Assembly (NCBI GenBank): GCA_036172245.1
Contig: JAYWIR010000060.1
Coordinates: 620,001-665,423 of the forward strand
DNA from: Raillietiella orientalis
Lineage: Eukaryota
Length of the DNA stretch: 45,423 nt
Direction: 5' to 3'
This document shows, piece by piece, positions 13,856-42,720 of the stretch (position 1 is its first letter; each line of letters begins with the position of its first letter). A model generated the notes under the pieces. It did no database searches. It was not told where the DNA came from and saw only the letters and a list, made by a program, of their open reading frames with translations. The translations under genes were made by a program, and so were the position numbers.

Positions 13856-13936
13856 TGCTGCCTAATCCTCCACCCACACCACGCACAAGCACCAACGGAA
13901 ATGGAACTCAGGAGCAACGAAAAGACACGTCCGCTC

Positions 13937-13954
13937 GACGCTCCGGAATCTCCA
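13937..13954. repeat. 18-bp direct repeat gacgctccggaatctcca (partner 19489-19506), probable TSD
   Basis: Lies between B1 and B2 and at the far end of B2. In the A' host frame it reads T-L-R-N-L-Q, homologous to A1 TLRSLQ. Confidence 0.7.
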
Positions 13955-14167
13955 TTGTAACCCGGGTGCGCCGATACGTTTATTCTAACGAATAAACTTA
14001 TACAATCTGTGACTGGACCAGTAGTCCAGCCACGCCCTGGAAAGATATAGCCTGCCGGGCTACCGGTGCGCAGACCGGCGCGGTCGACCTCGGCAGCAGA
14101 GGGGAGGGGGAACGAAACAAAAAGAAAACAAAAAATAAACAAAAATCAGGGAGGGAGCAGGAAGGGA

Positions 14168-17100: not shown

Positions 17101-17749
17101 ATGGTACCTTGCCGCGCCTGCCCACCCGAGAGCATAGGTGCTGATCAAGGTACACGTGATCGATGCTGCTTTCCATAACCGTGTCCCCGGCCAACAAGTT
17201 GCGCGTGTTCATTTCTGCGCACAACTCGTTGACGCGGTCGTTCAGTATATCCGGCGCACCTGAAAGCAGGCGCAGGTTGAAATCACCTGCGATCAGGTGC
17301 GCTTTGCGAACTCCTGCATCGGTCAGCCAGTCGCGTCTCAGGGCAAAGTAGAATTCCCTTCTTGCCTTCGCCTTCAACGCGTTATTTCTTCTAGGAGCGT
17401 ATAGGTTGGTGACGACCAGGTCGATAGAGTCGGACCAGCTGAGAGTCAGCTGACCGACGCGACCTGCGTCATCGAACCGAACGTCCTTTATTGCGGTCTC
17501 GATGGCTGGTTGAAGCAGGAAGGCGACACCGCTTGATTTCGCGGTGCCGCAACGCCACAACAGCCGCCCACCCGAGATCCGTTCGATCTCCCGGGCTTGA
17601 TCTGCGGAGATCACGTGGATCTCCTGCAGCAGCACCAGGTCGAAGGATGCCAGGGTGGCGGCCACGTCACGCCTCTTGCCGTCGTCGCTTAGCCCGTTCA
17701 CGTTCCAACAGGCGATCAGAAGACGACGGCGAGAGGCGATTCCCGGCAT
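14168..17749 (-). CDS. B2 ORF2: APE, RT and zinc finger; open for 1141 aa, then TGG->TAG at 14324-14326 (1193 aa if repaired)
   Basis: All APE and RT motifs including SAYADD. The first Cys of the zinc finger is Ser (PNSVRCGERE). The frame continues to TGA at 14168-14170. Confidence 0.9.
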
Positions 17750-19407: not shown

Positions 19408-19488
19408 TGCTGCCTAATCCTCCACCCACACCACGCACAAGCACCAACGGAAATGGAACTAAGGAGCAAGGAAAAGACACGTTCGCTC

Positions 19489-22400: not shown

Positions 22401-22507
22401 TGCGTCCCAGCGTCCTGGCGGGTCCAGTGTATATGGCCGTGAGCAGGGCCTTGTACCGCGGATCTAGAGTTTTACCAATAGACGCCCCGGGCGTACCCGG
22501 GTGTAAA
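19489..22507 (+). mobile_element. Family A' element, copy 1: linker, RT, zinc finger and 3' UTR (degenerate); host of B1/B2
   Basis: Frameshifted ORF2 pieces 19702..20904, 20895..21683 and 21912..; YADD; ends ...ccgggcgtacccgggtgtaaa. Confidence 0.88.
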
Positions 22508-22520
22508 CCTCCAGGCCAGA

Positions 22521-23929
22521 TGGAGGACGTGTTTTTCCTTCACTCCTCAAAGGGTAGTATGAAAGCGCTTTCTTGTGTGTGGTGTTTTGTGTACATCGTC
22601 GGTGTCCAATGGCCACGAGGCCAGAGGACACAGCGATGGAGGTGGGAGTGGGGCAGGCTAGTTCGCCCCCACAGCCTACTGGGGCAGGGCAGCCGCCCCG
22701 GAATCATCTCCGGACACGCCGAGGACATGGAGCGCCATGGTGGTCGCGCTCAGCGCAGAAACCATGGGGGAGATGGCTGCATACAAGGCCTCCGGGTACA
22801 AGCCATCGCTTGTCTACCAGGTAGGCAACTTGTTCGACGGCCGGACAACGCGCGGCTTCAGCAAAGCGTTGAAGGACGCGAATGTTACAGAGAAGGATCT
22901 GGACCGCCACTCCGTCCTCAGCGGCAGGCAGCGGGTGGAAGTGGTCTGCAAGGATGTCACCTTGGCTCACCGCCTAATCCTTGCGCCGCTGAACTTAGAC
23001 GGCCGCAAGATCCTGCCAGTGTCAATGGACCGCTCCGTGGTGGTCCACATGACTGGCATTACCAGCCGCATGACGTGGTCAGCGGTTGGTGAAGAACTGC
23101 GAAAGTACGGTGAGGTGCACGCACTGTGGCCGAAACCCTCCATTTTCGACGGCTTGGATAGCCTTTTTGGTGGTCAGGCTGCTGCGAGGGTCACCGTAAA
23201 GGAGAATTGTGGGCTTCCCCACAAACTACAGGTGGCGCAAGAAAATGTCGACCTGTGGTATGTAGGGAAGCCCCGGTATTGCGGGCATTGTGATACCTTG
23301 GACACCTACGTAAAAGGTGTCCCAATATACAATGCCATTTGTGCGGAGAGCGGGGCCACGATCGGCGCGTGTGCCCCAAACGCCCCACCCCGGTTCCCCC
23401 TGCCGCAAAAAAAGCGCAGGGGAAACGTGCTTCAAAGGTCTCTAGACCTAAAGTAAAAAAGGGCAAGCACAAGCTGCCAAGACCTCAACCTCCGGCGCGT
23501 AAGCCGGAGGATAAACCTTCGGAAACGGTGGAAGGCGAAGAGGGATGGCAGCTTGTAGAGGCCAGAAAACCAAGGAAACTCCCACCCGCGAAGAGCAAAG
23601 AGCGCAAGACGGCCAATTAGTTGAAAAAACCCGGTCCGCGCTCGAAAACTCTGCGCGAGTGCAGGGTGGCACTGGAACGAATCGTCGTTCCCGAGGTTGC
23701 CACCCGGAGCGACGATCCTCCCCTCGCCGTTTTTGCTGCGCCCGAGGCTCGCGACGGCGAACCGTCTGTTTACATAGAGGGTGAGCCGCGCAACATAGCG
23801 GCGGTCGAAGCCGTGGACGCCGCGTTCGCGCAGGCGGCGGAGGAGCTCGCGGTCACGCTGGCCGAGCGTGAGAACCCCTCGCGCAAGAACGTGCGAAGGC
23901 CGGCTCCGGCGAAGAAGGCCCCCACAGGT
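22521..23929 (+). mobile_element. A-like element 5' portion (5' UTR and frameshifted ORF1, ATG at 22609), cut by D1
   Basis: GGACGTGTTTTT at 22525; YKPSLVY..., knuckle remnants CGHCD and CGERGHDRRVC; breaks at KKAPTG. Confidence 0.88.
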
Positions 23930-26890
23930 TTTTCACCCGGGTAAGCCGGGACTTTTATTACTAAAATTTTGATATTACAAAATTTTGTAACAAAGTCTAT
24001 GTTGTTAAAATTTTTCTTTTTACGTCGTCAGAAGTTCAGTTCAGAAGTTCAGTAGCACTTGTCCTTACCGACCCGGAGGCCGATAAGGTCCTTCACTGGC
24101 GCCGGGACGGGAAAAACAAAAGAAAACAAAAACAAAAAAAGAAAAACGTCTGGAGGGCAATGTTTCTTGGGTAGGGGGAGGGAGGGAGGGGATCACGGTG
24201 CGCCGTGAGCAGGCCTTTGTATCCGGTTTCGGATGCGAACAAGTGCCGGCAAATGTTTTTGAATTCGGCGCCAACGGCACGCTTTCTCCAAGGAGATCGC
24301 TGCCAAGTGGTTGGCATTCCGGCTGGTCCTTCCTCTCCTAGACGCGGTCCACTACTTCAGGGTACCGCGTATGCAGCAGAGCACTGCTACGCTCCCGGAA
24401 GCTGGCAAGCCGTCTCGCGTCAGGAGGCGTCTAAATAAATTTTTCGGGTCACCCCCCGCAATGTTGAGGATCGACGAGAGTCTGTCCCACATTTCGCGGA
24501 GGGCAACACACTCCAGAATCAAGTGAGGGAAGGTCTCCCTTTCCCCGCACTCTGCACAACTAGCATCCACATTCCCCGATGTCCAGCGAGAGAGGCGTGC
24601 TCTGCTTAAAAGTCCCCAGTGGAGCACAAGCAACGCCGTCTCCTGCCACTGCAGGGGAAGGGTACCGTTGTCCCATGACGCTGGGGGCCACTTCACCTCC
24701 TCCGGAGGTATACCGAGCAGCGCGCATCAGCGTAAAAGTCCGTTCGGCGGGACACTCGGGGTACTAGCGTCCGCCAGTTCCCTCGGCGTCCACGCCTTCA
24801 GTGATTTTTTCCTGCCTCCGATGGGGCAGGACACTTCCCACGATGCCTGTTGGTGGCTGTCTCGTACTTCCCTGAGGGAGGGCAGCACTGGGGCAAGGGG
24901 GATGAAGGAAGCCCACAGAAGTTTCCGTGGGTTGGAAACGATCTCCTGAAGTGGCTGACCAGCGTGCCTCCCTCTGCGGAGGCAGGAGAAGTCCTCATCG
25001 CTGGTGCCCTTGATCTTCGCCCATGCGGATACAGACTCCTGAAGCCAGGTAGTCCAGTCCGCTGGGATGCAGGAGATCTAAGGGTTGTCTCTCATCAGGG
25101 CAACCAAGTCCCGCAGCTGATAACCACAATGGTTCAGGCTGCGTTCGTTGGCTACCAGGATTGAAGTCAATCCGAAGCAGCCTGTTGCCCTGTGAGCAAG
25201 GAGTCTTGCCAGTGCACACCATGGTGCTGTCCAAAACTTTGCCACAAGGGCAAGTTTTCTGAATTGGAGCTGTTGCTCCATGCGCTCCAACGTCAGGAGA
25301 CCAAGTCCACCGTCCCTGCGTGGAGCGCACGTCTTTGAGCCGGACGCGGGGCCTCCGGTTGCCCCAGAGGGCTTTCCGTATAAGGCCCCTAGTCCGTGTC
25401 CTAATTTGGTAAGGGATAGGGCACACAAAAATTAGGGGGCGAAGGAGGGGGGCCGCGAAAGCGTTCCATACCGTGGCCCGTTCCTGCAAGTGGAACTTGC
25501 CTTTCCGGAACGGGCCGATAGCCAGCTCCACCTTTTGTAGACGGTCGGACCAAGCTTCTGCAGAGCAGAAGTCCCCCAACGGAACGCCAAGGTACTTGAT
25601 GTACCTGCCCGTGGGGATCCCCAAGCGGTTCCAGTCCGACCGTCCGGTCCTCGTTGAGTCGGTGAAAAGCAACGACGATTTCGTCCTGTTTACCTGGAGG
25701 CCTGTCCCACGGTATAGCAACTCCAAGAAATCCTCGAGCGCCGATGCCGGGGTGGACCCGGGAAGCAGGAGCAGAAGATCGTCGGCATAGGCCGACACGG
25801 CAGACGTGCCGGGACACGAGCTCGGCAGGGTTGCCAAAGTCTCCCTGTATGCTCTCAGCACCAACTCAAAGTAGATGCTGAAGAGCAGGGGGCTGAGGCT
25901 GTCACCCTGCCGGATGCCACGACGAACCGGCACGCTGAACACGTGCCGGCCGCTGAAATTAATATTGATGTACGCGAAGCGCCAGCAGGAGCGCAGGTAG
26001 GCCAGGAACACGGCCGGAAATCCCAAGCGTTCCAGGAGCTCCAGCAGGAGATACTGGTCGACGCAGTCGAAAGCTTTACGCAAATCGACTGCGACCGCAA
26101 GGGCTCCAGGCTCCGCATCTTCTTCCCGGCTTCCCTCCCCCCTGTCAATGGAGAGTCCAGGACTTTCCCGACGTAGCTGCGCCTCGCGTTGTTGCAACTG
26201 CCAGAATGTGCTGGCGAGGAACAGGTTGGCCTCCATGGTTCGTCCGGGAACAGCGTATGTCTGTTCCGGACTGACCACGGAGTCCGCTACCCGTCCCAGG
26301 CGCTCAGCCCACAGTTTGGCGAGCAACTTTGCGTCCGCATTCACTACAGTGATGGGACGCCAGTTGCCAACGTTGCGCAAGTCTCCTCCCTTAGGAAGGA
26401 GACGTACTCTAGCTGACCGGAACGAGTTGGGTACATCCCCACGTTCACGGATCAGCATACATAGTTTTAGCACCAGAGGGGCCAGCTCTGCCACGAAGTG
26501 TTAGTAGAATTCAGCTGGCAGGCCGTCTTCCCCTGGTGCTTTGTTTTTTCTTAATTTAGTGATGGCGGAGATTATCTCCGCCATCGTGAACTCATGAAGG
26601 AAGATGTTTATTTCTTCCTCTCTCAACGCGAGAGCACCCTCTGGCAGTAGGCGCTGCGCAAAGGAGCACTCTGGTGGTCTCAGCGCGTAAAGGGAGGAAT
26701 AGTAATCCCGCAGAATGCGGCAAACCTGCGCTGGAGATGAGTGCTCCTGGCCTTCCTCGTCCAGCAAGCAGGCAGACCCGGATTGCCAGGCCTGCCTCTC
26801 CGCTCCAGCCTTGATTTCCGCCAGGCGACGGACGTCGGGCTCGTTGGAAAAACGACGGGCCTGGAGATAGTTCCTGTCGTTCCTAGGAGA
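23930..26890 (-). mobile_element. Family D element, copy D1: linker, RT, zinc finger and 3' UTR (degenerate)
   Basis: ORF 24995..26494 with SAYADD; CAECGERETFPHLILEC; 3' end aataaaagtcccggcttacccgggtgaaaa. Confidence 0.88.
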
Positions 26891-27702
26891 GTTGACAGAT
26901 GCAACGACCCCTAGTCTCCAACCGCGTGGATTAAGAAGATGAGGCGAGCTGCTCGGCATTCGATTGGATGACCTGAAGTGGCCCCCGGTTCTACTTGGAT
27001 CCAGGATTCTTCCCCTGAAGTGGCAAGAATCGGCGCTTCTGTGGCTGCATTGGGGTCTACCCTGCAACGCGCGCCGCTTCCACTGGACGCGGGGAAGAGT
27101 AAATCCTGCGTGTGCCAAGTGCGGGGAGCGGGAGTCGCTCCCCCACCTCTTAGTTGAATGCCCTGCCGTCCGGATTCTTTGGGAACGTCTTCAAACGGCT
27201 CTCGGGATGCCGGATGCTGGCAATGGTGGATGTATCTTCAGTCTTGTCTTCGTGCGGGACGCCCTCAGTCCAGCTGCAGCCCTGGCAGCACTTTGCTTCA
27301 TTCGTGGTATAGTGGCGGCCTGGAGTGATGCCGAAGATGAAGACTGCATCGTGAGGGATGTCATCGAGTATGCTTCTCGCTTCCTGCAGAGAGCTACCCG
27401 ATGGACCCATCTAGGAAGGATGAAAAAGGAACTAGAAGGCATCCTGCAAAGGATGGGCCCTCCCAGCAGTTTTCTGTGATCCCTTTCGGCCCTCCAAACT
27501 TTTTTTTGTGGTTTGTTTTTCTTTGTTATTTTATTTTTGTGTTCTCCCCCATCCCCCTCTACTGCTGAGGAGAGCCACACCGAGCTGCGTCTTGGTGTCC
27601 CGGCAGTTCCGGTATTGCGTGGCCGTCAGTGGGGCCTTGTACCACGTTCTGTATTGACCGTTGAAATGTTTTTAATAAACGTCCCGGCGTATCCGGGTGG
27701 CA
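26886..27702 (+). mobile_element. Family A element, copy A2, heavily 5'-truncated (ORF2 C-terminus and 3' UTR)
   Basis: Near-identical to about 40020-40839. Inserted at D1 GFGD|SPRN with a 5-bp ggaga microhomology at the 5' junction and no clear TSD. Confidence 0.9.
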
Positions 27703-28213
27703 TCGCCGAAACCTGGAGGAACTTGATGGAGGGGAAACTGGTCACAGAACTCTCGGACTGAGCGTTTTATTTTGTCCTAGTCAGCGAGAGTCTGCAGTTC
27801 GCAACTACGCAGGAATGGGCGCAGATGTTCGCGCGCTCCTGCGAGTCGCAACCAGTCCCCCGGCAGGCGCCACGCTTTGGAGGGTGGACCTCTGTCGCGC
27901 GGATGAATGTTAATCACTAGCCGAGGATGATCGGACAGCTCCGACGCAATTGCTCCTCGAGTCCCCACCCGCGTACACAAGTGGTTATCGAGAAACACGT
28001 GGTCGATTCTGCTTCTCGCCCTGGCTTCATCGGCCAACAAGTTGCGTGTGTGCATAGCCGCACACAACTCGTTGACCAATTGTGCTCGTATGTCGGGCGC
28101 TTCCGACAGCAGGCGGACGTTGAAGTCTCCCGCTATCAGATGCGCCCGCCGCACGCCTGCTTCGGCCAGCCAGTCTCGCCGCAGGGCTTCGAAGAACGCA
28201 GTGCTTTCTTCGA
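27702..28213 (-). mobile_element. D1 continued: APE C-terminal part, 5'-truncated
   Basis: AFFEALRRDW...GDFN...IDH...SDH...FPLHQVPPGFGD joins in frame to 26890. Confidence 0.85.
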
Positions 28214-28936
28214 AGGGCACAGGTGCTCGTCTTAAGACACGTGGTCAATGCTGCCTACCATCCCCGGTGCACTGGTCAACAAATTACAGGTGTGGAACGC
28301 CATGCACACGTCGTTGACCAGGTCACGCCCGGGATTCTACCCATCTGGTTTCAGGAGAACTTCGAAATCGCCTGCAACCAGATGGGCATTTCGCACGCGT
28401 GTCTCGGTCAACCAGTCGCGATGGAGGGCAAGGAAAATTTCTTTCCTAGCCCTCCTGTTCGTCAGGTCCGCTCTGCTCGGGTCGTAAACGTTCGTGACGA
28501 TCAAGTCGATCGAGTCGAACCACCTGAGAGTAAGCTGGACGACACGACCGTGATCGTCGAACCGCACGCCCCAAGTTGCGGCCTCGACGTCTGGCCGAAG
28601 CAGGTAGGAGACACCGCAAGTTTTCGGTCTCCCACACCTGTACCACAGCCGCCCATCGGAGATGCGTTGGATCTCTTGCGCTTGTTCTGCAGAGATCACG
28701 TGGATCTCTTGCAGTAGCGCAAGGTCGTACGACTGCAGAAGGGCGGCCATGTCTCGTCTCCGAAGGCGTCTGTTAAGCCGTTCACGTACCAAACGGCGAT
28801 GCGCAGGCGGAGGCGGTAGGAGATTCCTGGCATTTCTGCTGGGAACATTAAGGTGTTTGGAAGCCCGCCTCTTGCGAGGCGGGCAGGATGTCCATGGTGA
28901 TTTCGGCCTTCTCAGGCACCTAAGACACCTGATCGG
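28214..28936 (-). mobile_element. Family E-like fragment: ORF1 C-terminus and APE
   Basis: DMAALLQSYDLALLQEIH...RLWYRCGRPK matches the E host at 1-81 and from 2357. Confidence 0.82.
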
Positions 28937-31202
28937 CGAAGTATAGATGCCAACCTCTTCTTCGCGAGCACATGCATGCACGCGAAGAGGTATCAGAAGG
29001 ATGAGAAAGGAAAAATCGGCAACCCCACTTTGGAACCGCCAGCAGGGCAGGGAATGAACTCCCGGGCGGGGAAGGAGGCTTTAGCGCTCGCAGTCGATCT
29101 CCATAAGGCGTTCGACTGTTTTGACCAGGAGCTTTTGTAGCAGCTTCTGATTCGCATGGGCTTCCCACCCTCCTTGATCACCTTCTAGGGCTCTTGCTGG
29201 CGCAATGCGATTGTCTGCATCTTTTTCAGTAGTCAGAAGGTGTATGGCGTGCCGGTGCGGCGGGGCATCAGGCAGGGAGATCGCCTGAGTCCCCTGCTCT
29301 CCAGCACCTACTTTGAGTTGGTGCTGAGAGCCTACAGGGTGACTTTGGCCCCCTTGCCGAACTCGAGCCCCGGCACGCCCGCCGTAGGAGCCTATGCCGA
29401 TTTCCTTCGGCTTCTGTTACGTATGTCCACCCCGGCGAAGGCGGTCGGAGACTTCTTCCATCTGCTCACCCGTGGGACCTGACTGCAGGTCAACAGGGCG
29501 AAGTGGTCGGTGGTGCCAGTAGGTGCAACGTGGGGAGGACAGCAGGACTATGTCCGTCTGGGGATCCTCACGACGAGGTGCCTCAAGTACCTAGGTGTGC
29601 CGTTGGGGGACTACTCCTCTGGGTAGCGTGGTCCAGCTGCCTTCAAAAAGTTGAGACGGCGATCGGCCCGTTCCTGGAAGTCAAGTTTCACTTGCCGGAA
29701 CGGGCCGCGGTTTGAAACGCTTTTGCGTCCCTCTTCCTCCGCTTCTTGCTTTTTGTTTGTCCCGCCCCCAGAGAATGCAAAAAGAGGACGAAAGACCTCC
29801 TACGTGTCGCCCTTTGGGGCGAGGGAGGCCCTGAGTCCCTCTGAGGGACTTTTGCGCTCCACGTCGGGACGGCGGTCTTGGCCTCCTGACGCTGGAGCGC
29901 GTGGAAATACAGCTGCGGTGGCGAACTTTCGCCATCGCAGCGAAGATGTGGAGCACCCCTTGGTGCGTGACGGCCCGCCTCCTCGCCAGGCGTGTGTCCC
30001 GATGCGAAGGACTCGCGTCGTTTCTTCTGTGCCCTGGGCGGAAGATCCGAAGATGCGGCCTTGTGCTCGGACGCATAGCAACCCTGGCGATGACAAACGG
30101 TTGGATGGTTTGTGGCTCCGCCAACTCCTCCGCCTGGTTGGAGGAGACTGCTGGAACATGGGCCAAGCAGAACCGGAGGAGTGAAGACAACATGAACTGC
30201 CTGCGAATCGGCCCATACGCCAACCGCACCCTGCGGGAAATACTGGAATTTCCTCGGAGTCGCAGGTGGGCGTTGACGACCCCCCTTGCTACGGCAATGC
30301 CCTACCTCCTGAGGGCGCTTCAGGATCGCCAGAAGCCGAGGTGGAAAGTCACCTGCCAGATCGCAGGCAGGGAGAAGACGTTAAGCGGCTGGACCACAGG
30401 AGAACTGGCGGATGCCATGACCCCGAGCGTCCAGCCGCGTGGATTGATGAGATGGGGCGAGGTGCTCGCTATCCCTACATATGTGCTGCAGTGGCCCCCG
30501 GTACTCAAGAAATCCAGCCCCTTAAGTGGCAAGAGTCGGCGTTGCTACTGCGGCACTGGGGTTTACCCTGCAACGCACGCCGCTTCCACTAGACAAGGGG
30601 AGCTGTGGATCCTGAGTGTGTCTGGTGCCGACAGCGGGAATCGCTCTCCCACCTTATTGTGGACTTTGCTGCCTTCCGTCCCCTTTGGGAACGGTTTGGG
30701 ACGATCCTCGGTCTCCCAACGGGCAGTTCCCCTAGAGACGTTCTTCGGCCCCTCTTCGTGAAGAACGCACTGCAGCCAGCCGCAGCCATCGCAGCTTTGT
30801 GCTGCGTCCGTGGCATCGTGGCGGCATGGAGCGGCGCCAACAACGAAGGAGTGGGTCCAAACGCGAGGGATGTCATCCCATACGACCAACGCTTCATGCG
30901 GAGAGCTGTTGGATGGCCCCAACTGGGGAATATACGGACGGACCTCAAGGGCTTCCTTCAACGGATGGGCCCTCCTCAAAGCGTTTAGTGATCCCTTCCC
31001 CGCCCTTCAGCTTCTTTTTGTCTGTTTGTTTTTTGTTTTTATTTTTGTTTTATTCCCATCCCCCTTCGCTGCTTAGAAAGGCTACGCTGGGCTGCGTCCC
31101 GGCGTGCCGGCAGGTCCAGTATATATGGCCGTGAGCGGGGCCTTGTACCGCGGTTGTAGAGTTTTTTTAAAAAGAAACGTTCCGGGCGTACCGGTGTGTA
31201 AA
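28935..31202 (+). mobile_element. Family A' element, copy 2: RT to 3' end, heavily mutated
   Basis: Colinear with about 20233-22507; YADF variant; ends ...ccgggcgtaccggtgtgtaaa. Confidence 0.88.
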
Positions 31203-31770
31203 CCCCCAAGGCTGGCAAGAAGGCCGTAAGGCGTCCGGCATCCCCTCAGGAGTTGGCCACTTCCGACCCCAAGGTGAAGGCCGAAAACACAGCATCCATC
31301 TCCGCGGCACCCCGCAAAAAGGCAGGACGAAAGTCCACAATGCCCGGAAGATCGTCTCCCCCTACGAAGGGGAAGAGATGCCTTCCGGTAGCGAGGGTGC
31401 CATGAGCGTAGGAAACTCCCTGGACCCGTCACCCGAGAGAATTCTACGCTTGGACACGGAGAGGATGGTAAGGATGGAGGCCGAACAGGTACCCCAGGTG
31501 CCTGAAGAGGCCTTCGTCCTCGTTCCGATGGTCCTCGTACCGATGGACCTTTCCTACACCTGCCCCGCGGCAGGTGCCCAAACGCAACTTTCCCAGCCAT
31601 AATGCCGGGAATCCCCTCTCGCCGTCGTCTTCTGATCGCCTGTTGCGAACGGAACTGAACGGGCTAAGCGAAGACGGCAAGAGGCGTGACGTGGCCGCCA
31701 CCCTGGCATCCTTCGAGCTGGTGCTGTTGCAGGAGATCCACGTGATCTCCGCAGATCAAGCCCGGGAGAT
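31203..31770 (+). mobile_element. Family B fragment B3: ORF1 C-terminus and APE start, cut by C2
   Basis: PKAGKKAVRRPASPQE...; TAATG at 31600-31604; LLQEIHVISADQAREI, then the junction. Confidence 0.88.
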
Positions 31771-32123
31771 TTCTCACCCGGTGACGCCGGGGCGTTTATT
31801 CCATATAACATAACGAAAAAAAGCAATTATACAAAATAAACCAGTTGGGAACCAAACTCCCAACCGACGACTGAACAAGAATGAAGAGAATATTGCTGGC
31901 ACGCAGGCCAGAGTAACAGTTTCTTGAACGGTGTGGGGGGGTGGGAAACACAAAGAAACCAAAATAAAATAAAAAAAATGAATAAGGAGGACGGGATAAG
32001 GGTCTTTGGGATCGCTCTGGAAGACACGGGGATAAAAGCATGGGCACCGGAAATTTTACCGACCGAACGGGGACGGGGTATGGGTGGGCGAGAGGTCGCA
32101 GGGGTCACCGGATTACGCCGTTC

Positions 32124-35100
32124 TCAAAGGTGTGTAAACCGGCGATGTATGCCGGTGATGTCCTGATTCACCTTGTCACGAAGATGAGACCACCTTGAAG
32201 CCTTCTCCATGAATTGAGCTCCAAGCAGGTGAGCCTCCCTTCGCTGCGATGACAACTCCAGGGCGTAGCGGGCCTTCACGATGGCGCGAACGCAACACAT
32301 GGTTGCATCAATCGCGCTAACCGAAAGTCCATTTCTGCTGAAGAAGCGCCGCAGCACATCAATGGCAGTGCCTCCTTGTGGCATGATGGCCGAAGTGAGT
32401 CTTCGCCACAGTTCCCGGAGGTCACCGCAGTCCAGCAAAAGGTGCGGAAAAGACTCGATCTATCCGCACCTTAAACAGTTTGGCAAGGCAGCTCCCCCGG
32501 AAACGATGCTTCGCTGCCTATTACAGTGTAATGCACAATGTAAAAACAGCAGCACATCTTGTTTCCACTTTAGGGGGAACACGGAGCTGTCCAAACAAAC
32601 GGGGGGAACCACTATCTCTACGGGGGGCACACTGAAATGTTCGCGCCACCGAAGCAGACCCTTCGCCCAATTCCGAGGAGTGGCGACTTGCACCAGATCC
32701 TTTGTCGTCCAGCTGCCGAGGAGCTTACTGACTCCCGCTATTTTGCAGGAGAACTTCCATTCCGCCGGTAGGCAACCGTCGTTGCTTGCCCTGAAAGCAG
32801 ACAGCGCTGCGGCGAGTGGTGTGGCGGCCAGACGATCCGACAACTTCTTGTCCTGCATGACTTCGTCCATTTGATGACTGAGGAGAAGTCGCAGGCGTCG
32901 AAGATGTTCCAAGCGCGTTCCTTCGGAATCTGCCCACGATGAAAAAGATTCCTGCCGTCATGCATCTATGTTCATGGGGCGGCAGGAGATCCAGCTTTGG
33001 GCTTCCAGCAGTGAGGACAGCTGCCTCAGCGGGAAGCCAAACCCTATTCTGGTGTGCCGAAAGTGGGGTAGCAACGAAAGCAGTCCCTCGCTTCCCGTGC
33101 AGCGCCTCAGTATAAGGCGTGCGGGTAAGCGCCACGGCGTACACCACAGCTTGGCACAGAGCCGCAGCATGCGGAACTGCACCTGCAGTTCGATGCTGTT
33201 TAAGTCGAGGATGCCCAAGCCTGCATCCTGGCGCCGCGCCACCAAGTCTTTAAGTCTAACACGGGATCTTGCAGCGCCCCACAACGCTTTGCGTAGAAGG
33301 CGCTGCGCCCAGACTTTGACTTCCTGGGGAGGTGGACAAACAAAAAACAGGGGGCGGAGGAGGGGGACAACGAAGGTGTTCCAGATGCTGGCCCGTTCCG
33401 GCAAGACGAACTCGCCTCCTGAAAACGGGACAAGTGCACGTTCTGCCTTCCGAAGGCAGTCCGACCACGCTTCTATGATGCAGATGTCGCCCAACGGCAC
33501 GCCAAGGTACCTGAGGTACCTGCCCGTGGGGATCCCCAGGTCGATCCAGTCGGACTGCCCCTCCCACGTCGCACCCACCGGAACGACCATACACTTACTC
33601 CTGTTAACGCTCACGCCGGCACCGCGACGAATCAACCCAAAGAAGCCTTCAGGCGATGTCGCCGGGGTGGACATGGGCAACAGGAGAAGCAGGTCGTCGG
33701 CATAGGCTGCCACGGCCGGCGTACCTGGACAGGAGCTCGGCAGGTTGGCTAGCGTCAGCCTGTAAGCCTCCAGCAGCAATTCAAAATAGATGCTAAAGAG
33801 CAGTGGGCTTAAGCAGTCACCCTGCCTAATTCCACGTCGTACCGGCACGCCGTACACGCGACAGCCACTGAAAACAATGGATGTAATCGCGTGGCGCCAG
33901 CAGGAGCGCAAGTAGGACTGGAGCACGGCCGGGAAACCCATGCGTTCCAGGAGCTCCAAAAGGAGTTCCTGGTCGACGCAGTCGAATGCTTTGTGCAAGT
34001 CGACCGCGACTGAAAAGGCTCCCGCCGAGTCCCCCCCACCCTCTCTTCGATATTGCTGGTCAGAGGTGAGCGCAAGACTCCCTTGACCTTCCTGGGCAAC
34101 GCGTTGTCGCAACTGCCACCATGTGCTGGCGAGGAGCAGGTTGGACTCCATGCTTCGTCCGGGAACAGCATAAGTCTGCTCCAAACTGATCACGGAAGCG
34201 GCCACCCGCCCCAAGCGCTCAACCCACAACTTGGCATACAACTTCGCGTCCGCATTCACTACTGTGATGGGACGCCAGTTGCCAATGTTGCGTAAGTCTC
34301 CTGACTTCGGCAGGATACGTACTTTTGCTGACCGAAACAACGCGGGAACTTCGCCGTGTTCGCGGATCAGCGTACTTAACCTGAGCACCAGGGGGGTCAG
34401 CTCTGGTGCGAAGTGTTTGTAGAACTCCTCGGGCAGGCCGTCCTCCCCTGGTGCCTTCCTTTTCTTAAGCCTGCTGATGGCGGAGACGACCTCCACCATC
34501 GTGAACGGTTCGGCGAACCTGAAAGGATCCTCCTCCTTGAGCGCGGGGAGGCCATCCGGCAGCAGGCGCTGCGCGAAATGGCGCTCCGGTGTTAACGGCG
34601 CGTACAAGGAGGAATAAAACTTCCGCACGATGCCGCTCACCTGAGCTGGGCTGGAGCGTTCTTGGCCCTGATGGTCCAGCAAGCAGGCCGAGCCTGACTT
34701 CCAGGCCTGCCTCTCCGCCTCAGCTTTGAATTCCGCCAAGCGTCGGACGTCGGGACGCCTGGAATACCGGCGGGCCTGTAGGTAGGCCCGCTCGTTCTTG
34801 ACCTTATCGCCGAAGCCCGGCGGAAGACGTTCCAGGGGAAACTGGTCGCAAAACTCGCGGACTGAGCACTTCATTTCGTCCCAGTCCGCGAGCGTCTCAA
34901 GATGGAATCCTCGCAGGAAACAGCGTAGATGTTCCGCCGCTCCTGCGAGGCGCAACCAGTCCCCTGGCAGGCGCCACGTTTTCAAGGGAGGGCCCTTATT
35001 CCGCGGATGGAACTCGAGCACGAGCCGTCGATGGTCGGACAGCTCTGCCGGGAGCGTTCCTCGAGATCCCACCCGCGTGCACAGGTGGTTGTCGAGGAAC

Positions 35101-35699
35101 ATGTGATCGATGTTCCGATCTCTCCCGGCATCACCGGCCAACAAGTTGCGCGCATTCATTGCTGCGCACAACTCGTTGACCAGCTGTGCTCGTCTGTTGG
35201 GTGCACCTGCTAGCAGGCGGAGATTGAAATCGCCCGCGATGAGGTGCGTCCGCCGTACGCTTGCTTCAGCCAGCCAGTCTCGCCGCAGGGATTCGAGGAA
35301 CGCAGTGCGTTCCTCGGCCCCGTGATTGCTCACTGGCGCGTATATGTTCGTCACAACGAGGTCGATCGATTCGGAACACTTGAGAACAAGCTGTCCAACT
35401 CGACCGTCCCAGTCGAAGCGAACGCTACGGAGAGAGTTTTCGACTGCCGGCTTCAGCAGAAAGGCCACTCCGCACGAGTAGCCTGTTCCGTTCCTCCACA
35501 GCAGCCGCCCTCCTGTGATTCTTTCGAAATCCTGGCCTGCTTCTGTTGTGAGCACGTGAGTCTCTTGCAGTAGGGCCAGGTCGAAGTTTCGCAGAATGGC
35601 GGCTACGTCTCGCCTCTTCCCGTCGCTGCTCAACCCGTTGACGTTCCAACAGGTTATTCGCAAGCGGCTAGAGGAGGCGAGTCCACGCAATGGTGTTGT
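32124..35699 (-). pseudogene. C2 ORF2: APE, RT and zinc finger, stops at 32958-32960 and 32460-32462
   Basis: ORFs 32958..35690, 32460..32912 and 32124..32438 are in frame; CWNVNG, LQETH, GDFN, SDH, AYADD. Confidence 0.9.
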
Positions 35700-36349
35700 T
35701 ATGGTGGGGTGGAAGAAACCGCCTCCTGTTCAGAAGACGGGTGGTCCGGGTCCATGTCGTTGGAGTGTTCAGGAGCATCGCTCACTCCGTCGGCCGTGAA
35801 CTGTGTTTACAGTTGGTAAAGGATGCTCTCAGGCACGGAGTCGCATTGTGCAACGCACATGGACTCTTCCTCGCTGTCAGATGCCATTTCAACCTCTTCC
35901 TGAGAGGTGACAGCACGCCTACGAGCACCTGTTGCATTTTTATGTTTTCTTTTCGGCAAGCCAACGGAGGGCGAGTTCCCGCTTTCGGCGTCAGACTCGG
36001 AGGTTTCCGGGTCTTTTGCCGTAGCCGGGCGTCGAACGGCCTTCTTCTCGGCCTTGACGGGCTGCCTCAGGAAGGCAGCCAACTCTTCCGCGGCTTGCGC
36101 GAAGTTTGCATCAGAGATGCGTTCCACGTCATCACGGATTTCGCCGCCTGTTGGCGAGTCGGGTGACGTAACAACCGATTCGATAGCGGCAACTGGCGCG
36201 CTATCGTTCGGAACCGCAGCGGCTGAGCTTTCGCTCGCCGCTACAACGCTCCCAGTGGACTGGACTGGAACAACCATTTCGATCGCGGCAACGTGTGCCG
36301 CGCTATCGATCGCGACCGTAGCGATTTCGCCGCACGAAGCCGGAAACGC
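35699..36349 (-). pseudogene. C2 ORF1 C-terminal part
   Basis: FAQAAEELAA..KKAVRRP motif shared with the other ORF1s. Internal TAA at 35807-35809; probable true stop at 35699-35701. Confidence 0.75.
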
Positions 36350-39291
36350 TTTTTCACCCGGATATGCCGGCGCATTTATTCAAAAGAATAAAATTACAAT
36401 GGATTGTCGCGTGTTGAACCCAAGGGTCCATCACTACAAAACAGCTTGGTATTTACCGGCGCGATGCCGGAGAGGTCCATCCGATGCGCGGGGGTTGGGA
36501 AAGAAAAAAAAAAACAAACAAACAAATAGTTGAAGTATGGGAGGGAAGAAATGTTTCGGGAATGGGAGGGCAGGGAGGGGATCACCGTGCGCGCGGATAG
36601 GTCCTCTAGATCCTATTCAGGATCCGTACAAGCTGAGTCCTCTCTGCGCCCAAGTGGCGCCACTTGCAGACGTCTCGGACGAATAGGCGAGTGAACCGTA
36701 AGGCGTTCTCGGTTGGCTGACGTCTTCTTCTGGTGGCGTTCCAAGCCGCCACGATCCCTCGAATGCAGCAGAGGACTGCTACAGAAGAGGGGGAGGACAA
36801 GCCGTCACTACGGAAGAGGAGCCTAAAAACGTCCTTAGGGCCGCATCCGTGCAAGTCCAGGATCGCCGGGAGACGATCCCATAAAGGGCGGATGGCACTG
36901 CACTCGATGAGAAGGTGGAAGAAGGTCTCTTTTTCCCCGCACCGGTCACAATAAGGATCCACGGCCCCCCGGGTTGTGTGATGAAGGCGTGCTTTGAATG
37001 GAAGTCCCCAGAGGACCACAAGCAACTCCACATCCTGCCATTTCAGGGGGAGGGATCCACTGTTCCAGGACGCCGGGGGCCACTTCATCTCCTCCGGAGA
37101 TGATACGAGTAGCTCGCCCCAGCGTCGAATTACGTTGGGCGGGACTCTCGGCGTCGCAGCGTCCGCTAGCTGCCGAGATGTCCACGCCATAATCGTTTGT
37201 GTCCTGCCTCCAATGGTGCAGGACACGTACCATTTCCCAAGCTCCCTACTGTCCCTGGCGTCGATGAGGAAGAACAGCACTGGGGCAAGGGGGGTTATCA
37301 AAGCCCACATGCGCTATTCGTGGGACTGCACGATCTCCTGCAGTTTCCAGCGGGCGTGCCTTTGCAGGCAAGTGTTTCTTGTGCCCGCCGAAACGTGGAT
37401 CTTTACCCAGGTGGACACTGACTCGTGCAGCCATGCAGAGTAGTTCCCTGGGCGGCAGGAGATCTAGGCGTTCTCCCGTACCGCAACTTCCATGCGACGC
37501 AGGAATAAGCAGCCGTGTGCTTCTCTGCGGTCGCGTGCCAGCAGAAACGACAAAAGTCCGTCGCATCCGTAGGCTCGTTGGGCCAGGAGGCGTGCTGGAA
37601 CGCACCAAGGCGTGTCCCACAATTCCGCTGCAAGAGCGAGAGTCCTGAACCTAAGTTGTAGTTCAATGCGCTCCAGCGTAAGAACGCCTAGTCCTCCGTC
37701 CTTACGTGGAGCGCACAAGTCTTTGAGCCTCACACGGGACCTCCCTTTGCCCCAAAGGACTGTCCTCAGGAGGCCCGCTGCTCGTTTTCGGATAAAATAA
37801 GGGGCGAGGCAAACAAAAAGTAGGGGGCGAAGGAGGAAAGCCGCAAACGCGTTCCACACCGCGGCCCGTTCCTGCAAGTAGAACTTGCCTTCTTGGAACG
37901 GACCGATCGCCAACGCTGCCTTTTGGAGACGGTCGGACAGGGCTTCTGCTGCGCAGAAGTCCCCCAACGGTACGCCGAGGTACTTGAAGCACCTGGCCGT
38001 GAAGATCCCCAAGCGGATCCAGTCCGACCGTCCAGCCCACGCCGAACCGACGAAGACCATGGACGACTTCGCCCTATTCACCTCCAGACCCGTCCCGCAA
38101 CGCAGCAACTCGATGAAGTCCTCGAGTGCACTCGCCGGGGTGGACCCGGGAAGCAGCAGCAGAAGATCGTCTGCATAGGCCGACACGGCAGGCGTGCCGG
38201 CACACGAGCTCGGCAGGGCTGCCAGAGTTACCCTGGATGCCCTCAGCACCAGCTCAAAGTAGATGCTGAAGAGCAAGGGGCTTAGGCTGTCACCCTGCCG
38301 GATGCCGCGGCGTACGGGCACGCCGTACACGTGCCGGCCGCTGAAACCGATATTGATTGACGCGTTGCGCCAGCAGGAGCGCAGGTAAGATTGAAGCACG
38401 GCAGGGAAACCCATGCGTTCCAGGAGCTCCAGAAGGAGATCCTGGTCGACGCAGTCGAATGCTTTGTACAAATCGACCGCGACGGCAAAGGCTCCCGCCG
38501 AGTCCATCCCACCCTCTGCCCGATCTTCTTGGTCAGAGGGGGGCGCGAGGCTCCCTTGACCGTCCTGTGCAACGCGTTGTCGCAACTGCCACCATGAGCT
38601 GGCGAGGAGCAGGTTGGCCTCCATGGTTCGTCCGGGAACAGCATAGGTCTGCTCGGGACTCACCACGGAAGCGGCCACCCGCCCCAAACGCTCAGCCCAC
38701 AACTTGGCATACAACTTTGCGTCCGCATTCACTACTGTGATGGGACGCCAGTTGCCAATGTTGCGTAAGTCTCCTGACTTCGGCAGGAGACGTACTTTTG
38801 CTGACCGGAACGAGGCGGGAACTTCGCCGTGTTCGCGGATCAGCGTACTTAACCTGAGCACCAGGGGGGCCAGCTCTGGCGCGAAGTGTTTGTAAAACTC
38901 CGCGGGCAGGCCGTCCTCCCCTGGTGCCTTCCTTCTCTTGAGCCTGTTGATGGCGGAGAAGATCTCCGCCATCGTGAACGGTTCCGCCAATCTGGAACGG
39001 TCCTCCTCCTTGAGCGCGGGAGCGCCATCCGGCAGCAGGCGCTGCGCGAAATGGCGCTCAGGAGTGAGTGGCGCGTACAAGGAGGAATAAAAGTCCCGCA
39101 CGATGCGGCTTACCTGGGCTGGGCTGGAGCGTTCTTGGCCCTGATGATCCAGCAGGCAGGCCGAGCCTGACTGCCAGGCCTGCCTCTCCGCCTCAGCCTT
39201 GAATTCAGCCAGGCGACGGTCGTCGGGACGCCGGGAATAACGGCGCGCCTGGAGGTACGCCCGCTCGTTCCTGACACCCTCACCGAAGCCC
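36350..39291 (-). mobile_element. Family D-like element, copy D2: linker, RT, zinc finger and 3' UTR; host of A3/A4
   Basis: ORF 37464..39101 with SAYADD; CDRCGEKETFFHLLIEC; ends aataaatgcgccggcatatccgggtgaaaaa; broken at GFGE. Confidence 0.9.
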
Positions 39292-40839
39292 TTTCCTGGA
39301 AGGCAAGTTTCACTTGCCGGAACGGGCCGCGGTTTGGAACGCCTTCGCGGCCCCCGTACTCCGCCCCTTGCTTTTTGTTTGCCCCGCCCCCGTGGAATCG
39401 AAAAAGCGGACGAAGGACCTCCTCCGCATAGCTCTTTGGGGCAAGGGGAGGCCCCGAGTCCCTTTGAAGGACTTGTGCGCTCCGCGTCGGGACGGCGGTC
39501 TCAGCATCCTGACGCTGGAGCGCGTGGAAATCCAGCTGCGATGGCGGACCCTCGCCATCGCAGCAAAGATGTGGAGCACCGCTTGGTGCATTCCGGCCCG
39601 TCTCCTGGCCAGGCGTGTGTCCCGCTGCGAAGGACACGCATCGTTTCTCTTGTGCCCTGGCCGGAAGATTCGAAGATGCGGTCTACTGCTCGGCCGCATG
39701 GCAACCCTGGCAAAGGAGAACGACTGGATGGTTTGTGTCCCTGCCAACTCCTCCGCTTGGCTGAAAGAGACTGCTGGCACCTGGGCCAAGCTGAACCAGA
39801 GGTGCGAAGACCAGATGAACTGCCTGCGAGTCGGCTTTTACGCCCGCCGAACTCTCCGTGGAATACTTGAATTTCCACCGAGTTGCACGTGGGCGGAAGG
39901 CACACCCCTTGTTACGGCGATGCCCTTCCTCCAAAGGGCGCTTCACGAAAGCCGGAAGCCAAGGTGGCAAGTCTGCTGCCGTATCGCAGGCAGAGAGAAG
40001 ACGATGAGCGGCTGGACCATGGGAGAGTTGACAGATGCAACGACCCCTAGTATCCAGCCGCGTGGATTAAGAAGATGGGGCGAGCTGCTCGGCATTCGAT
40101 TGGATGACCTGAAGTGGCCCCCGGTTCTACTTGGATCCAGGATTCTTTCCCTGAAGTGGCAAGAATCGGCGCTTCTGTGGCTGCATTGGGGTCTACCCTG
40201 CAACGCGCGCCGCTTCCACTGGACGCGGGGAAGAGTAAATTCTGCGTGTGCCAGGTGTGGGGAGCGGGAGTCGCTCCCCCACCTCTTAGTTGAATGCCCT
40301 GCCGTCCGGATTCTTTGGAAACGTCTTCAAACGGCACTTGGGATACCGGATGCTGTCAACGGTGGATGTATCTTCAGTCTTTTCTTCGTGCGGGACGCCC
40401 TCAGTCCAGCTGCAGCCCTGGCAGCACTTTGCTTCATTCGTGGTATAGTGGCGGCCTGGAGTGATGCCGAAGATGAAGACTGCATCGTGAGGAATGTCAT
40501 CGAGTATGCTTCTCGCTTCCTGCAGAGAGCTACCCGATGGACCCATCTAGGAAGGATGAAAAAGGAACTAGAAGGCATCCTGCAAAGAATGGGCCCTCCC
40601 AGCAGTTTTCTGTGATCCCTTCCCGGCCCTCCAAACTTTTTTTTGTGGTTTGTTTTTCTCTTTTATTTTATTTTTGTGTTCTCCCCCATCCCCCTCCACT
40701 GCCCAGGAGAGCCACACCGAGCTGCGTCCCGGTGTCCCGGCAGTTCCGGTATTGCGTGGCCGTCAGTGGGGCCTTGTACCACGTTCTGTATTGACCGTTG
40801 AAATGTTTTTAATAAACGTCCCGGCGTATCCGGGTGGCA
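39292..40839 (+). mobile_element. Family A element, copy A3, 5'-truncated (open 433-aa ORF2 C-terminus and 3' UTR)
   Basis: ORF 39314..40615 with CARCGERESLPHLLVEC; TSD tcaccgaagccc(tt) at 39280 and 40840. Confidence 0.92.
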
Positions 40840-40968
40840 TCACCGAAGCCCTTCGCCGAAAGCCGGTGTGGGTGGACGTGTTTTTTGGTCGCTACGCCAG
40901 CGCTTGTCTGGGAAGCACCCGGAGTTTTTTAGTGTAGTCAGGTGTAAAGTGTGGGTCGTCGGTGTCCG

Positions 40969-42720
40969 ATGGCAGTTGTGCCAGAGGACACCGCGATGGA
41001 TGTAGTTGTGGAAGAGGCAAGTCCTCCCACAAGACCTACAGCTATGGGGGCAATAGTCCCTGGAACGTCTTCGCAGCCGGCGAAGACTTGGAGTGAAATG
41101 GTCGCCGCCCCCAGTGCGGAGGCCATAGCCGAGGAAGCCGCCTATCGGGCCTCTGAATACAAGCCATCGCTTGTATACAAGGTAGGCCCTTTGTTTGAAG
41201 GAAACACGGCGCGCTCTTTCAGCAGAGCGCTTCAAAATTCTAATGTCCGTGAAGAAGATCTGGAAGGTCTGTGCGTGCTCAGCGGGGCGCAGCGGGTTGA
41301 GCTGGTGTGCAAGAGCATCAGCCTAGCCGATCGCCTTATAAATACCCCGTTGATCATGGACGGTCGAAAGATCTTCCCGGTGTCGATGGACCACTCGGTT
41401 GTGGTCCACTTGACAGGAATATCCAAGCGCATGACGCGCACTGCAGTGAAGGACGAATTAAGCAAGTACGGGGACGTACACGCGCTGTGGCCGAAGCCCA
41501 CAATCTTTGAGGTCTACGGACGCCACTTCGGGGGCCTCGCCGCGGCACGTGTAACCCCAAAAGACGAAGCGAAGCTACCCCACAAACTTGAGGTCGCGGG
41601 AGAACCGGTAGACCTCTGGTATGCGGGCAAGCCACGGTATTGCGGCAACTGCGATGCGGTCGGACACATCCGAAAGAGGTGCCCAAACATCGTATGCTAC
41701 TTGTGCGGGGAGAAGGGACACGTCCTTCGCGTGTGCCCTAAACGCCCCACCCCGATTCCCTCGGCCGCCAAAAAGGCGCAAGGGAAACGCGCGGGGAAAG
41801 AAAAATTGCAGAACCGTGAAACTGGCCGAGAAAAGCTGCCAATAACCCAAGCTCCCAGCGCGGCATCGGAGAAAAATCTTCCCGAGACCGCAGAGGGAGA
41901 ACAGGGCTGGCAGCTAGTCAAAGCCAAAAAAGAGAAAAAGGACAAGCATGTCCCGAAGAAAGGAGAGAAGGCGGCGGCCGGAACAAAAGCTAAATCCGTG
42001 TCGCGCGTAAAAACTCTCCGAGAATGCACGGTTACGCTGGAGCGCATTGACGTTCCCGCCGACACCACCGCAGGCGATACGGCTTCGATGGATTTTCCCG
42101 CCGCGGCGAATGCGCGCGAAAACCCACCCCCTGCTTGCGACGAGGGTCAGCCGGACGACAAAATCGCCGAAACGGAGGACGCAGCCTTCGAGAAGGCCGC
42201 GGAGGAGCTCGCGGCAACGCTTGCCGAACGCGAGAACCCTTCGCGAAAGGGGTTGCGTTGGCCGGCAGCGGCTAAAATGGCCTCCGCAGGTGAGTCGGAC
42301 CGGGAGGCCGGAAGTGCATCCTCCTCTGCGGAAGCACCACCAAGGAAAGCGGGGCGAAAATCCCAGAAACCCCGAAGGTGCATTCCGCCTCCGCGCGAGG
42401 GGGATCCAATGGAGGAGGAACCAGTGGATGACAGCGTGGGAGCCCAAGTCGGGCATTACCCACGTGCGGAAGCCGACGAGAAGGCGACTCCAATGGTGGA
42501 GGGTAACCAGTGGTCAGCAATGCCCTCTGAAACCGCCGAACCTGAACCACCCGCACCAATGGATGTGGGCCAACAGGTACGAACAACATCCCCTTCGCAC
42601 GGGCAGCCGGAGACGTCGGCACGTAAGAAGGATGGGGAGTTGGTGGGCGAGACGCCAACCCCGTCCAGCGACCCGCCCCAAAAGGTGGCGGGAGCACCAC
42701 CGCCAGGTTCCCAGGAATAA
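40969..42720 (+). CDS. A4 ORF1: gag-like protein with two intact CCHC knuckles, 583 aa
   Basis: CGNCDAVGHIRKRC and CYLCGEKGHVLRVC. Confidence 0.92.
   Translation: MAVVPEDTAMDVVVEEASPPTRPTAMGAIVPGTSSQPAKTWSEMVAAPSAEAIAEEAAYRASEYKPSLVYKVGPLFEGNTARSFSRALQNSNVREEDLEGLCVLSGAQRVELVCKSISLADRLINTPLIMDGRKIFPVSMDHSVVVHLTGISKRMTRTAVKDELSKYGDVHALWPKPTIFEVYGRHFGGLAAARVTPKDEAKLPHKLEVAGEPVDLWYAGKPRYCGNCDAVGHIRKRCPNIVCYLCGEKGHVLRVCPKRPTPIPSAAKKAQGKRAGKEKLQNRETGREKLPITQAPSAASEKNLPETAEGEQGWQLVKAKKEKKDKHVPKKGEKAAAGTKAKSVSRVKTLRECTVTLERIDVPADTTAGDTASMDFPAAANARENPPPACDEGQPDDKIAETEDAAFEKAAEELAATLAERENPSRKGLRWPAAAKMASAGESDREAGSASSSAEAPPRKAGRKSQKPRRCIPPPREGDPMEEEPVDDSVGAQVGHYPRAEADEKATPMVEGNQWSAMPSETAEPEPPAPMDVGQQVRTTSPSHGQPETSARKKDGELVGETPTPSSDPPQKVAGAPPPGSQE

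Follow-up and report, generated by a model that had tools for sequence, protein, structure and literature searches.

When retrotransposons insert into one another, do they land wherever a nick happens to open, or do they choose their place? The question is raised by a stretch of 45,423 nucleotides of the Raillietiella orientalis assembly GCA_036172245.1 (contig JAYWIR010000060.1, positions 620,001 to 665,423, forward strand), which was analysed as a whole and is hereafter called the window. Self-comparison and mapping onto one full-length reference copy (B2, 13955-19506, minus strand) show that the window is covered end to end, on both strands, by fragments of long interspersed nuclear elements (LINEs) that are 70-97% alike, with a G+C content of 0.55-0.64 across its whole length; it is an island, or nest, made only of related L1-like LINEs. 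Within this nest, the 3' ends of three elements (A1, A2 and A3) are joined antisense to three different hosts (B1, D1 and D2) within 1-4 bp of one position, at the codons for G-F-G-(D/E) in the second open reading frame (ORF2). In B2, G-F-G corresponds to residues 326-328, between the endonuclease (APE) and reverse transcriptase (RT) domains. A preliminary description of the locus had proposed repeated and independent antisense insertion at these codons, and this is supported by the restoration of the host frame upon removal of A2, by the 12-bp target-site duplication (TSD) around A3, by the tandem of A3, TSD and a fourth element, A4, and by A1. The explanation that we favour, and hold to be probable, is site-preferential, target-primed insertion of the A lineage and of the related A1, antisense at G-F-G-(D/E), by way of a predicted sequence-specific nick by the APE endonuclease. 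The elements and sites concerned are as follows.

4774-5666, minus strand: F, ORF2 residues 326-619, of the A/I clade; left flank of A1; ends TCCCCAACTCC(C), a GVG(E) site
5667-~11325, plus strand: A1, full length, of a lineage distinct from A2-A4 (76% identical to A3); 3' end within 11323-11327
8392-8402, minus strand: empty GFG site in A1's own ORF2, reading TCCCCGAATCC on that strand
11324-13954, minus strand: B1, 5' end to ORF2 residue 328; right flank of A1; starts (C)CCCAAATCCC; 94.7% identical to B2
13955-19506, minus strand: B2, full length
16860-16870, plus strand: empty GFG site of B2, TCCCCAAAACC
23929-26890, minus strand: 3' part of D1, from ORF2 residue 331 to the 3' end, which (at 23929) lies antisense in ORF1 of the element J
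26891-27702, plus strand: A2, 5'-truncated copy of the A lineage, which is young, ORF2 residue ~1030 to the 3' end (tblastn, residues 1030-1173)
27703-27713, plus strand: A2 target sequence TCGCCGAAACC, antisense of the D1 G-F-G-D codons, directly behind the A2 3' end
27703-28212, minus strand: 5' part of D1, ORF2 residues 165-328
34807-34817, plus strand: empty GFG site of the element C2, TCGCCGAAGCC
36350-39291, minus strand: D2, ORF2 residue 326 to the 3' end, bounded by the left TSD copy, with the 5' part outside the window
39280-39291, plus strand: A3 TSD, left copy, TCACCGAAGCCC, antisense to the G-F-G-E codons; the GCCC that closes it doubles as microhomology with A3
39292-40839, plus strand: A3, 5'-truncated A-lineage copy, ORF2 residue ~786 to the 3' end, ...GGGTGGCA
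40840-40851, plus strand: right copy of the A3 TSD, TCACCGAAGCCC
40852-45423, plus strand: A4, with a full-length 5' end; ORF1 40948-42720, ORF2 from 42627; runs off the window
43593-43603, minus strand: A4's own site, empty, encoding G-F-D-E and reading TCGTCGAATCC, one base off the target motif

What do the junctions look like at the level of single bases? The junction of A2 with D1 (27702/27703) reads ...CCGGGTGGCA/TCGCCGAAACC, the element ending in ...GGGTGGCA; on the left, D1 ends ...CCTAGGAGA, and the bases GGAGA (26886-26890) are a microhomology common to A2 and D1. In D1, the codons for D (27702-27704) and S (26888-26890) lie in the frames of the two tblastn matches, so that removal of A2 (26891-27701) leaves D1 in frame, as ...PPGFGD-SPRN..., with the same length as GFGEGPRN in B2. 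This restoration had been claimed beforehand and stands; the boundary falls one base to the right of where it had been drawn, the A of 'atc' belonging to, or being shared with, the element. A3 lies at GFGE of D2, with its 12-bp TSD on both sides, and starts after the 4-nt microhomology GCCC, while the start of A4 at 40852 directly adjoins the right TSD copy, both as described before. The junction of A1 with B1, placed at PAGFG in the preliminary description, was reproduced to the base: it reads ...GGGTGACAA/CCCCAAATCCCGC, is ambiguous within the four Cs at 11324-11327, and the right flank of A1, read on the minus strand, gives L-H-R-L-P-A-G-F-G (antisense P-A-G-F-G of B1). The left flank of A1 is indeed the same site in another host, since F ends TCCCCAACTCC(C) at 5656-5667, in a G-V-G-E version of it. 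F is cut at an offset of +12, identical to the end of the A3 TSD, and this offset is thus common to two hosts.

At the junctions, the host sense strand ends ...GGNTTYGGNGA-3' and is continued by the complement of the exact element 3' end GGGTGGCA, with no A-tail or filler. The second strand is opened opposite the first cut in A2, and 12 bp downstream in A3 and on the left of A1; the truncated 5' ends are joined through 4-5 nt of microhomology. A second copy can come to lie next to the first, as the row of A3, TSD and A4 shows.

Ten copies of the GFG site are found in the window. Four are half or wholly filled, at three loci (F/B1, D1 and D2), and six are empty, one each in B2, C2, G, I, A1 and A4. 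B2, which is 94.7% like the interrupted B1, is itself uninterrupted, and so is C2, in agreement with earlier remarks on both. Within the ~97% lineage, both determinable 3' ends (A2 and A3) lie at the GFG site, and the third copy, A4, abuts the TSD. In one public DNA run (X1), 0.25 of the sampled words were present; over 25900-28300 it yielded 38 short contigs, for the most part with 90-95% identity, of which those listed all leave the A2 junctions unbridged; one loose end in this run, before 27730 (CTCACCGAAGCCCGGAGG...), is a diverged homologue of the site only.

The target had been summarized as (T)CNCCRAANCC. The six perfect copies of TCNCCRAANCC in the window do all lie at GFG sites, those at filled loci being at 27703 and in both copies of the A3 TSD (39280 and 40840); because the motif was derived from four homologous coding sites, the bases recognised are indistinguishable from those conserved for the protein, and as a recognition sequence the motif is under-determined. 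A hairpin in the target DNA was dropped as a feature of the site: by eye, it is present in C2 and in A1's own site and absent in B2 and D1. The A lineage's own site departs from the motif by one base (TCGTCGAATCC, G-F-D-E), a single case; as judged from its sequence, the change might protect the lineage from itself.

Are these independent events, and could their coincidence be due to chance? The inserts A2 and A3 are 96.9% identical (792/817 columns) and A3 and A4 96.8% over 431 bp, compared with 64-76% overall for the host flanks (D1/D2 73.8%, D1/F 63.9%, D2/F 67.9%, D1/B1 67.6%). The 5' ends differ as well, A1 and A4 having full-length ones, A2 beginning at ORF2 residue ~1030 and A3 at residue ~786, which bears out the claim of different hosts and different truncations. 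A copied composite is excluded because these 5' ends and the TSDs (0-1 versus 12 bp) differ and because the inserts are far more alike than the host flanks. There are 11 readable 3' junctions in the window (A1, A2, A3, I, E, H, C1, C2, B2, D1 and D2), of which three share the GFG site, two share another one and the remaining six are each at a place of their own. When 11 junctions were placed uniformly on 2 x 5550 positions, at least three fell within 5 bp and in one orientation in 48 of 400,000 simulations (P about 1.2e-4). Independent copies at a common position and orientation of a repeated target, the mark of a target-specific LINE, are hence found for A1-A3, and also for C1/C2.

The inserted elements are not all of one kind, as the name 'family A' had implied. 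A2, A3 and A4 share about 97% identity. A1, at only 75.6-76.2% to them, is as distant as I (77.0%) or E (76.3%), and a tree of RT sequences groups A4 with I and E (support 94/97), leaving A1 outside. The interval first proposed for the phenomenon, 26880..40865, takes in A2 and A3 but not A1. The other elements of the window are these.

1-81 and 2357-3666, plus strand: G, the host of C1
82-2334, minus strand: C1, 5'-truncated copy of the C lineage
3667-4794, minus strand: H
19507-22509, plus strand: I, 5'-truncated
~22515-23928, plus strand: J
28214-~28934, minus strand: n
28935-31204, plus strand: E, 5'-truncated
~31205-31770 (also given from 31203), plus strand: B3, the host of C2
31771-~36349, minus strand: C2, longer copy of the C lineage

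Is the GFG site the only one of its kind? In C1 and C2, which are 95% alike, the 3' end meets the host in antisense at one and the same base of the R-E-I codons (ORF2 residue ~88, ...GAGA/T). The host is G for C1 and B3 (31203-31770) for C2, and over 80 bp the flanks of the two reach an identity of only about 75%. The TSD of C1 is 8 bp long, GCAAGAGA, at 74-81 and 2357-2364, and its truncation point differs from that of C2. Stacking of D2 with C2 at the REI site was considered and rejected, the D2 3' end (36350) abutting what is probably C2 ORF1; no common site was found for the 3' ends of D1 and D2, whose flanks (J ORF1, antisense, and C2 ORF1, sense) are only vaguely similar. The observation in the preliminary description is real and non-random, and its interpretation is partly supported: right in substance, too narrow in leaving out the second site and its lineage, and too wide in its family A.

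What sort of element behaves in this way? ORF2 comprises an APE endonuclease, an RT and a C-terminal Cys/His motif. Pfam matches in B2 and A4 place PF03372 (Exo_endo_phos) at the N-terminus (5e-13 and 3.3e-13, respectively) and PF00078 (RVT_1) after it (3.3e-23 and 7.3e-23), the domains spanning residues 47-244 (APE) and 495-763 (RT) of B2 ORF2. The closest solved structure is human L1 ORF2p (E 1.4e-47), the best R2 chain reaching only 7.9e-15. ORF1 carries two CX2CX4HX4C knuckles in each of B2 and A4; it gives a zf-CCHC Pfam match in A4 and no Pfam match at E 0.01 in B2. APE and RT in ORF2, together with a nucleic-acid-binding ORF1 with CCHC knuckles, are what defines an APE-type, L1-like LINE. 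The hallmarks of target-primed reverse transcription are likewise present: 5' truncation in A2, A3, C1, I, E and D1, and TSDs of 12 bp (A3), 8 bp (C1), probably 5 bp (I) and 0-1 bp (A2). The protein collection contained no close relatives (474 matches, the best among those listed being 21-35% identical), and the Atlas protein clusters returned were generic APE-RT ones only. Metagenome contigs scanned with the 3'-end pattern yielded one locus (L001); neither blastn nor tblastn shows it to resemble the window, and it was rejected as a chance match.

The 3' ends have a structure of their own. In the alignment, AATAAA, located 20-25 nt before the element end, is followed by a short hairpin, CCNGG-N4-5-CCNGG, which shows one compensatory pair in C1; all 11 ends stop 4-8 nt past the hairpin (GGCA, AACC, GAAA, AAAAA...), directly against the flank. 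The 3' poly(A) tail typical of L1 proper is absent from all 11 readable ends. By analogy, such tail-less hairpin ends appear more like those of 'stringent' LINEs, which are recognised via their 3' structure.

Among the window copies, both ORFs are open in B2 only. A1 has in-frame stops at 9874 and 10765, ORF2 of C2 likewise has two, and A4 has a 1-bp deletion near 44983 (GCGATC-GCCC, against GCGATCGGCCC in four relatives). The C-terminal CX2C...H...C motif of B2 is without its first Cys, which A3 has.

The 5' end of A4 holds a further trace of the site. Its leader (40852-40873, TTCGCCGAAAGCCGGTGTGGGT) begins TTCGCCGAAAGCCGG, is target-like, and stands ahead of a conserved GGACGTGT(T/C)TTTT core; it contains TCGCCGAA, an exact 8-mer of the D1 and C2 targets, and differs from the adjacent TSD. 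To judge by its sequence, the leader was probably the left TSD flanking the copy from which A4 arose, co-transcribed with the element; alternatively, it may be a built-in part of the 5' end.

How, then, might insertion proceed? In the explanation favoured here, the APE endonuclease of these lineages would nick the GFG sequence specifically, as in Tx1L or R1, and reverse transcription would be primed from the host sense strand at ...GGNTTYGGNGA-3'. The RT is predicted to recognise the 3' hairpin and to start at the hairpin-marked end, in the manner of a 'stringent' LINE. The second strand would then be cut at +12 or 0, the truncated 5' ends being joined by microhomology, and a second copy could land beside the first, giving element-TSD-element. 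The A4 leader, if transcribed along as the left TSD of a source copy, may aid 5' joining by homology. The site itself would persist through its coding role, as part of a conserved block in the proteins of the host elements.

Several observations weigh against site-preferential insertion in this form. The A1 junction lies 1-4 bp off that of A2 and A3, and the two flanks of A1 stem from different hosts, F and B1, the former belonging to the A/I clade and being 74.6% like B2. Because its flanks come from different hosts, A1 calls for a further event, either recombination between insertions at two GFG sites or one insertion bridging two cuts; whichever event joined them, both flanks mark the GFG site. 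I and E, the nearest to A4 in the RT tree, have their 3' ends elsewhere, that of I lying between B2 and J, at TCCAG, where these two have their 5' ends, and that of E in ORF1 of B3, in sense orientation. The preference for GFG is for this reason either recent or not strict: either two lineages share it and it was lost in I and E, or it is not strict. Half of the six perfect motif copies are empty (8392, 16860 and 34807). The evidence comes from one 45-kb window and from three to five events, and none of the A copies in the window is shown intact, A4 having its 1-bp deletion.

Targeting might lie in the RNA and not in the endonuclease. Host flank co-transcribed with A copies at a GFG site could anneal to the homologous site of another LINE at a nick of low specificity, setting both the start of reverse transcription and the joining of the 5' end, in a process that would perpetuate itself. 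Co-transcribed target sequence helps junction formation in R1 and R2, and in the window A4 carries, ahead of the GGACGTGT core, its target-like leader TTCGCCGAAAGCC, which was probably brought from another GFG locus because it differs from the adjacent TSD; the use of microhomology at the 5' junctions points the same way. We nonetheless regard this mechanism as unlikely. The position of AATAAA suggests that transcripts are cut at the element end, without 3' flank; the targets differ at 2-4 of 11 bases (TCGCCGAAACC, TCACCGAAGCC, CCCCAAATCC), so that pairing would be imperfect; and the leader may simply belong to the element, only one full-length A copy being available in the window. Still less credence can be given to the absence of any real site specificity, in which a LINE-saturated island and a short endonuclease preference (e.g. 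after GA) would account for the insertions, and DNA structure, an R-loop or luck for the cluster at GFG. It is true that a host strand ending ...GA-3' primes 5 of the 11 junctions (A2, A3, C1, C2 and I), the other six being at six different places, and that I and E, close to A4, sit elsewhere. Yet GA dinucleotides are far too common to single out one site, the top strand is cut at an identical +12 offset in two hosts, the exact coincidence of C1 and C2 is a second one, and three junctions within 5 bp and in one orientation are hardly expected under uniform placement, as computed above.

A single ancient insertion might also have been copied together with its host, through segmental duplication or composite retrotransposition, with the A parts gene-converted, or the pattern might stem from assembly artefacts. 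The region is rearranged, A1, D1 and E having flanks from different hosts and C2 being a mosaic, and the junctions are left unbridged by the listed X1 contigs. Such origins are very improbable all the same, and the differences between A2 and A3 in truncation point and TSD come close to refuting them. In addition, removal of A2 restores the host frame exactly, the inserts are far more alike than the host flanks, and what meets at the junctions is unrelated, a hairpin-bearing 3' end on one side and a coding site on the other, whereas assemblers mis-join at homologous repeats. Twin priming, which also leaves LINE segments side by side in opposite orientation, was rejected: insert and flanks are different lineages (64-76%) with their own 3' ends, and the host is in frame once the insert is removed.

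The two sites, GFG and REI, invite a broader and more tentative reading, which we put forward as a possibility that is itself doubtful. The window might house a guild of sister LINE lineages, the endonuclease of each homing antisense into a different conserved ORF2 codon block of its relatives, G-F-G-(D/E) for A and R-E-I, in the APE domain, for C. Each hit would disable a competitor and add targets, making the island self-feeding; A would escape through its G-F-D TCGTCGAATCC, and the target-like leader would help full-length joining. In such a guild, the target could not easily mutate away, because selection on the victim's own protein would hold it constant. The arrangement recalls that of homing endonucleases in conserved genes, and the island those that serve as centromeres in some algae.

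Which known systems come closest? Available parts of the literature describe Tx1L of Xenopus laevis, of the L1/Tx1 group, as inserting at one site of the DNA transposon Tx1D (PMC6719617, PMC1950540), with a specificity that resides in a sequence-specific APE endonuclease (PMC1950540, PMC6719617). Like Tx1L, the elements of the window have an APE-type, L1-like ORF2 and a defined target sequence inside a mobile element. Unlike Tx1L, they strike not a DNA transposon but related LINEs, whose coding sequence is entered antisense at a conserved codon block. The specificity of the endonuclease is here a prediction, and two different blocks are in use among at least two lineages. As in the window, R1, TRAS/SART and R2 insert time and again at a single nucleotide position of a target that is conserved and present in many copies, their 3' junctions are precise, and one site can hold tandem or adjacent copies; R1Bm is reported to have a specific APE endonuclease (PMC1950540, PMC1919474). 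However, their targets are host genes (ribosomal DNA) or telomeric repeats, not LINEs, and R2 uses a restriction-like endonuclease.

Zepp of Coccomyxa/Chlorella and ZeppL-1_cRei of Chlamydomonas are reported, in the accessible portions of the sources, as L1 LINEs in nested LINE-only clusters at putative centromeres (PMC8226300, PMC3446292, PMC9940879, PMC11005252, 10.1101/2025.03.28.645958). In several green algae, such clusters are described there as the chief repeat of the centromere, and new copies are said to 'target existing copies' (PMC8226300, PMC3446292). As far as these descriptions go, the likeness to the window extends to nested clusters of tens of kb, made almost only of one L1 kind, with many 5'-truncated copies and a G+C content near 61% (0.55-0.64 in the window). 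We take it, by analogy, as a likeness in way of working and not as kinship. ORF1 of Coccomyxa Zepp is described, in the part of the source at hand, as being without CCHC knuckles (PMC5203782), unlike the knuckle-bearing ORF1 of the window; and, unlike in Zepp as described, site, strand, TSD and, going by the junctions, nick position are defined here. In the available parts of the literature on Zepp, ZeppL and LINE targeting, neither a base-level self-target in a LINE's own coding sequence nor a mechanism is given; the original Zepp papers lie outside that scope and may bear on the point. A LINE that targets another transposon (Tx1L) and nested Zepp clusters are thus already known, and what would be new, going by the sequence of the window, is a site-specific LINE that hits the coding sequence of related LINEs.

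Should the pattern hold genome-wide, a sequence-specific nick in a conserved codon block of an element's own kind would provide a concrete mechanism for the nucleation and growth of such islands. It would also constitute a case of LINE-against-LINE competition, and its short defined targets (11-12 bp, two in sister lineages) would lend themselves to the study of how APE specificity changes. If it fails genome-wide, the pattern is a local curiosity of one rearranged repeat island.

The remaining joins bear on the history of that island. B2 and B1 are joined head to tail (13954/13955) with no spacer and no A-tail, a 21-nt leader being common to both. The join of I, TCCAG and J (22509-22515) is likewise head to tail and without A-tail, and the 5' ends of B2 and J would meet head to head if I and the 5-bp TSD TCCAG were removed (19506/19507). 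Like A1, D1 and E each lie between two different host elements, D1 between J and n and E between n and B3 (left and right flank, respectively), which points to rearrangement of the island or else to insertions that bridged breaks lying far apart. C2 is a mosaic (33337-34818 compared with 37810-39291), being 72% identical to D2 on the RT side and 90-93% in the linker, which points to recombination between lineages. Between the recognisable ORF1 of C2 and the 3' end of D2, 36119-36349 contains short internal repeats (GCCGCGATCGAA / GCCGCTATCGAA) and is probably diverged C2 ORF1 sequence.

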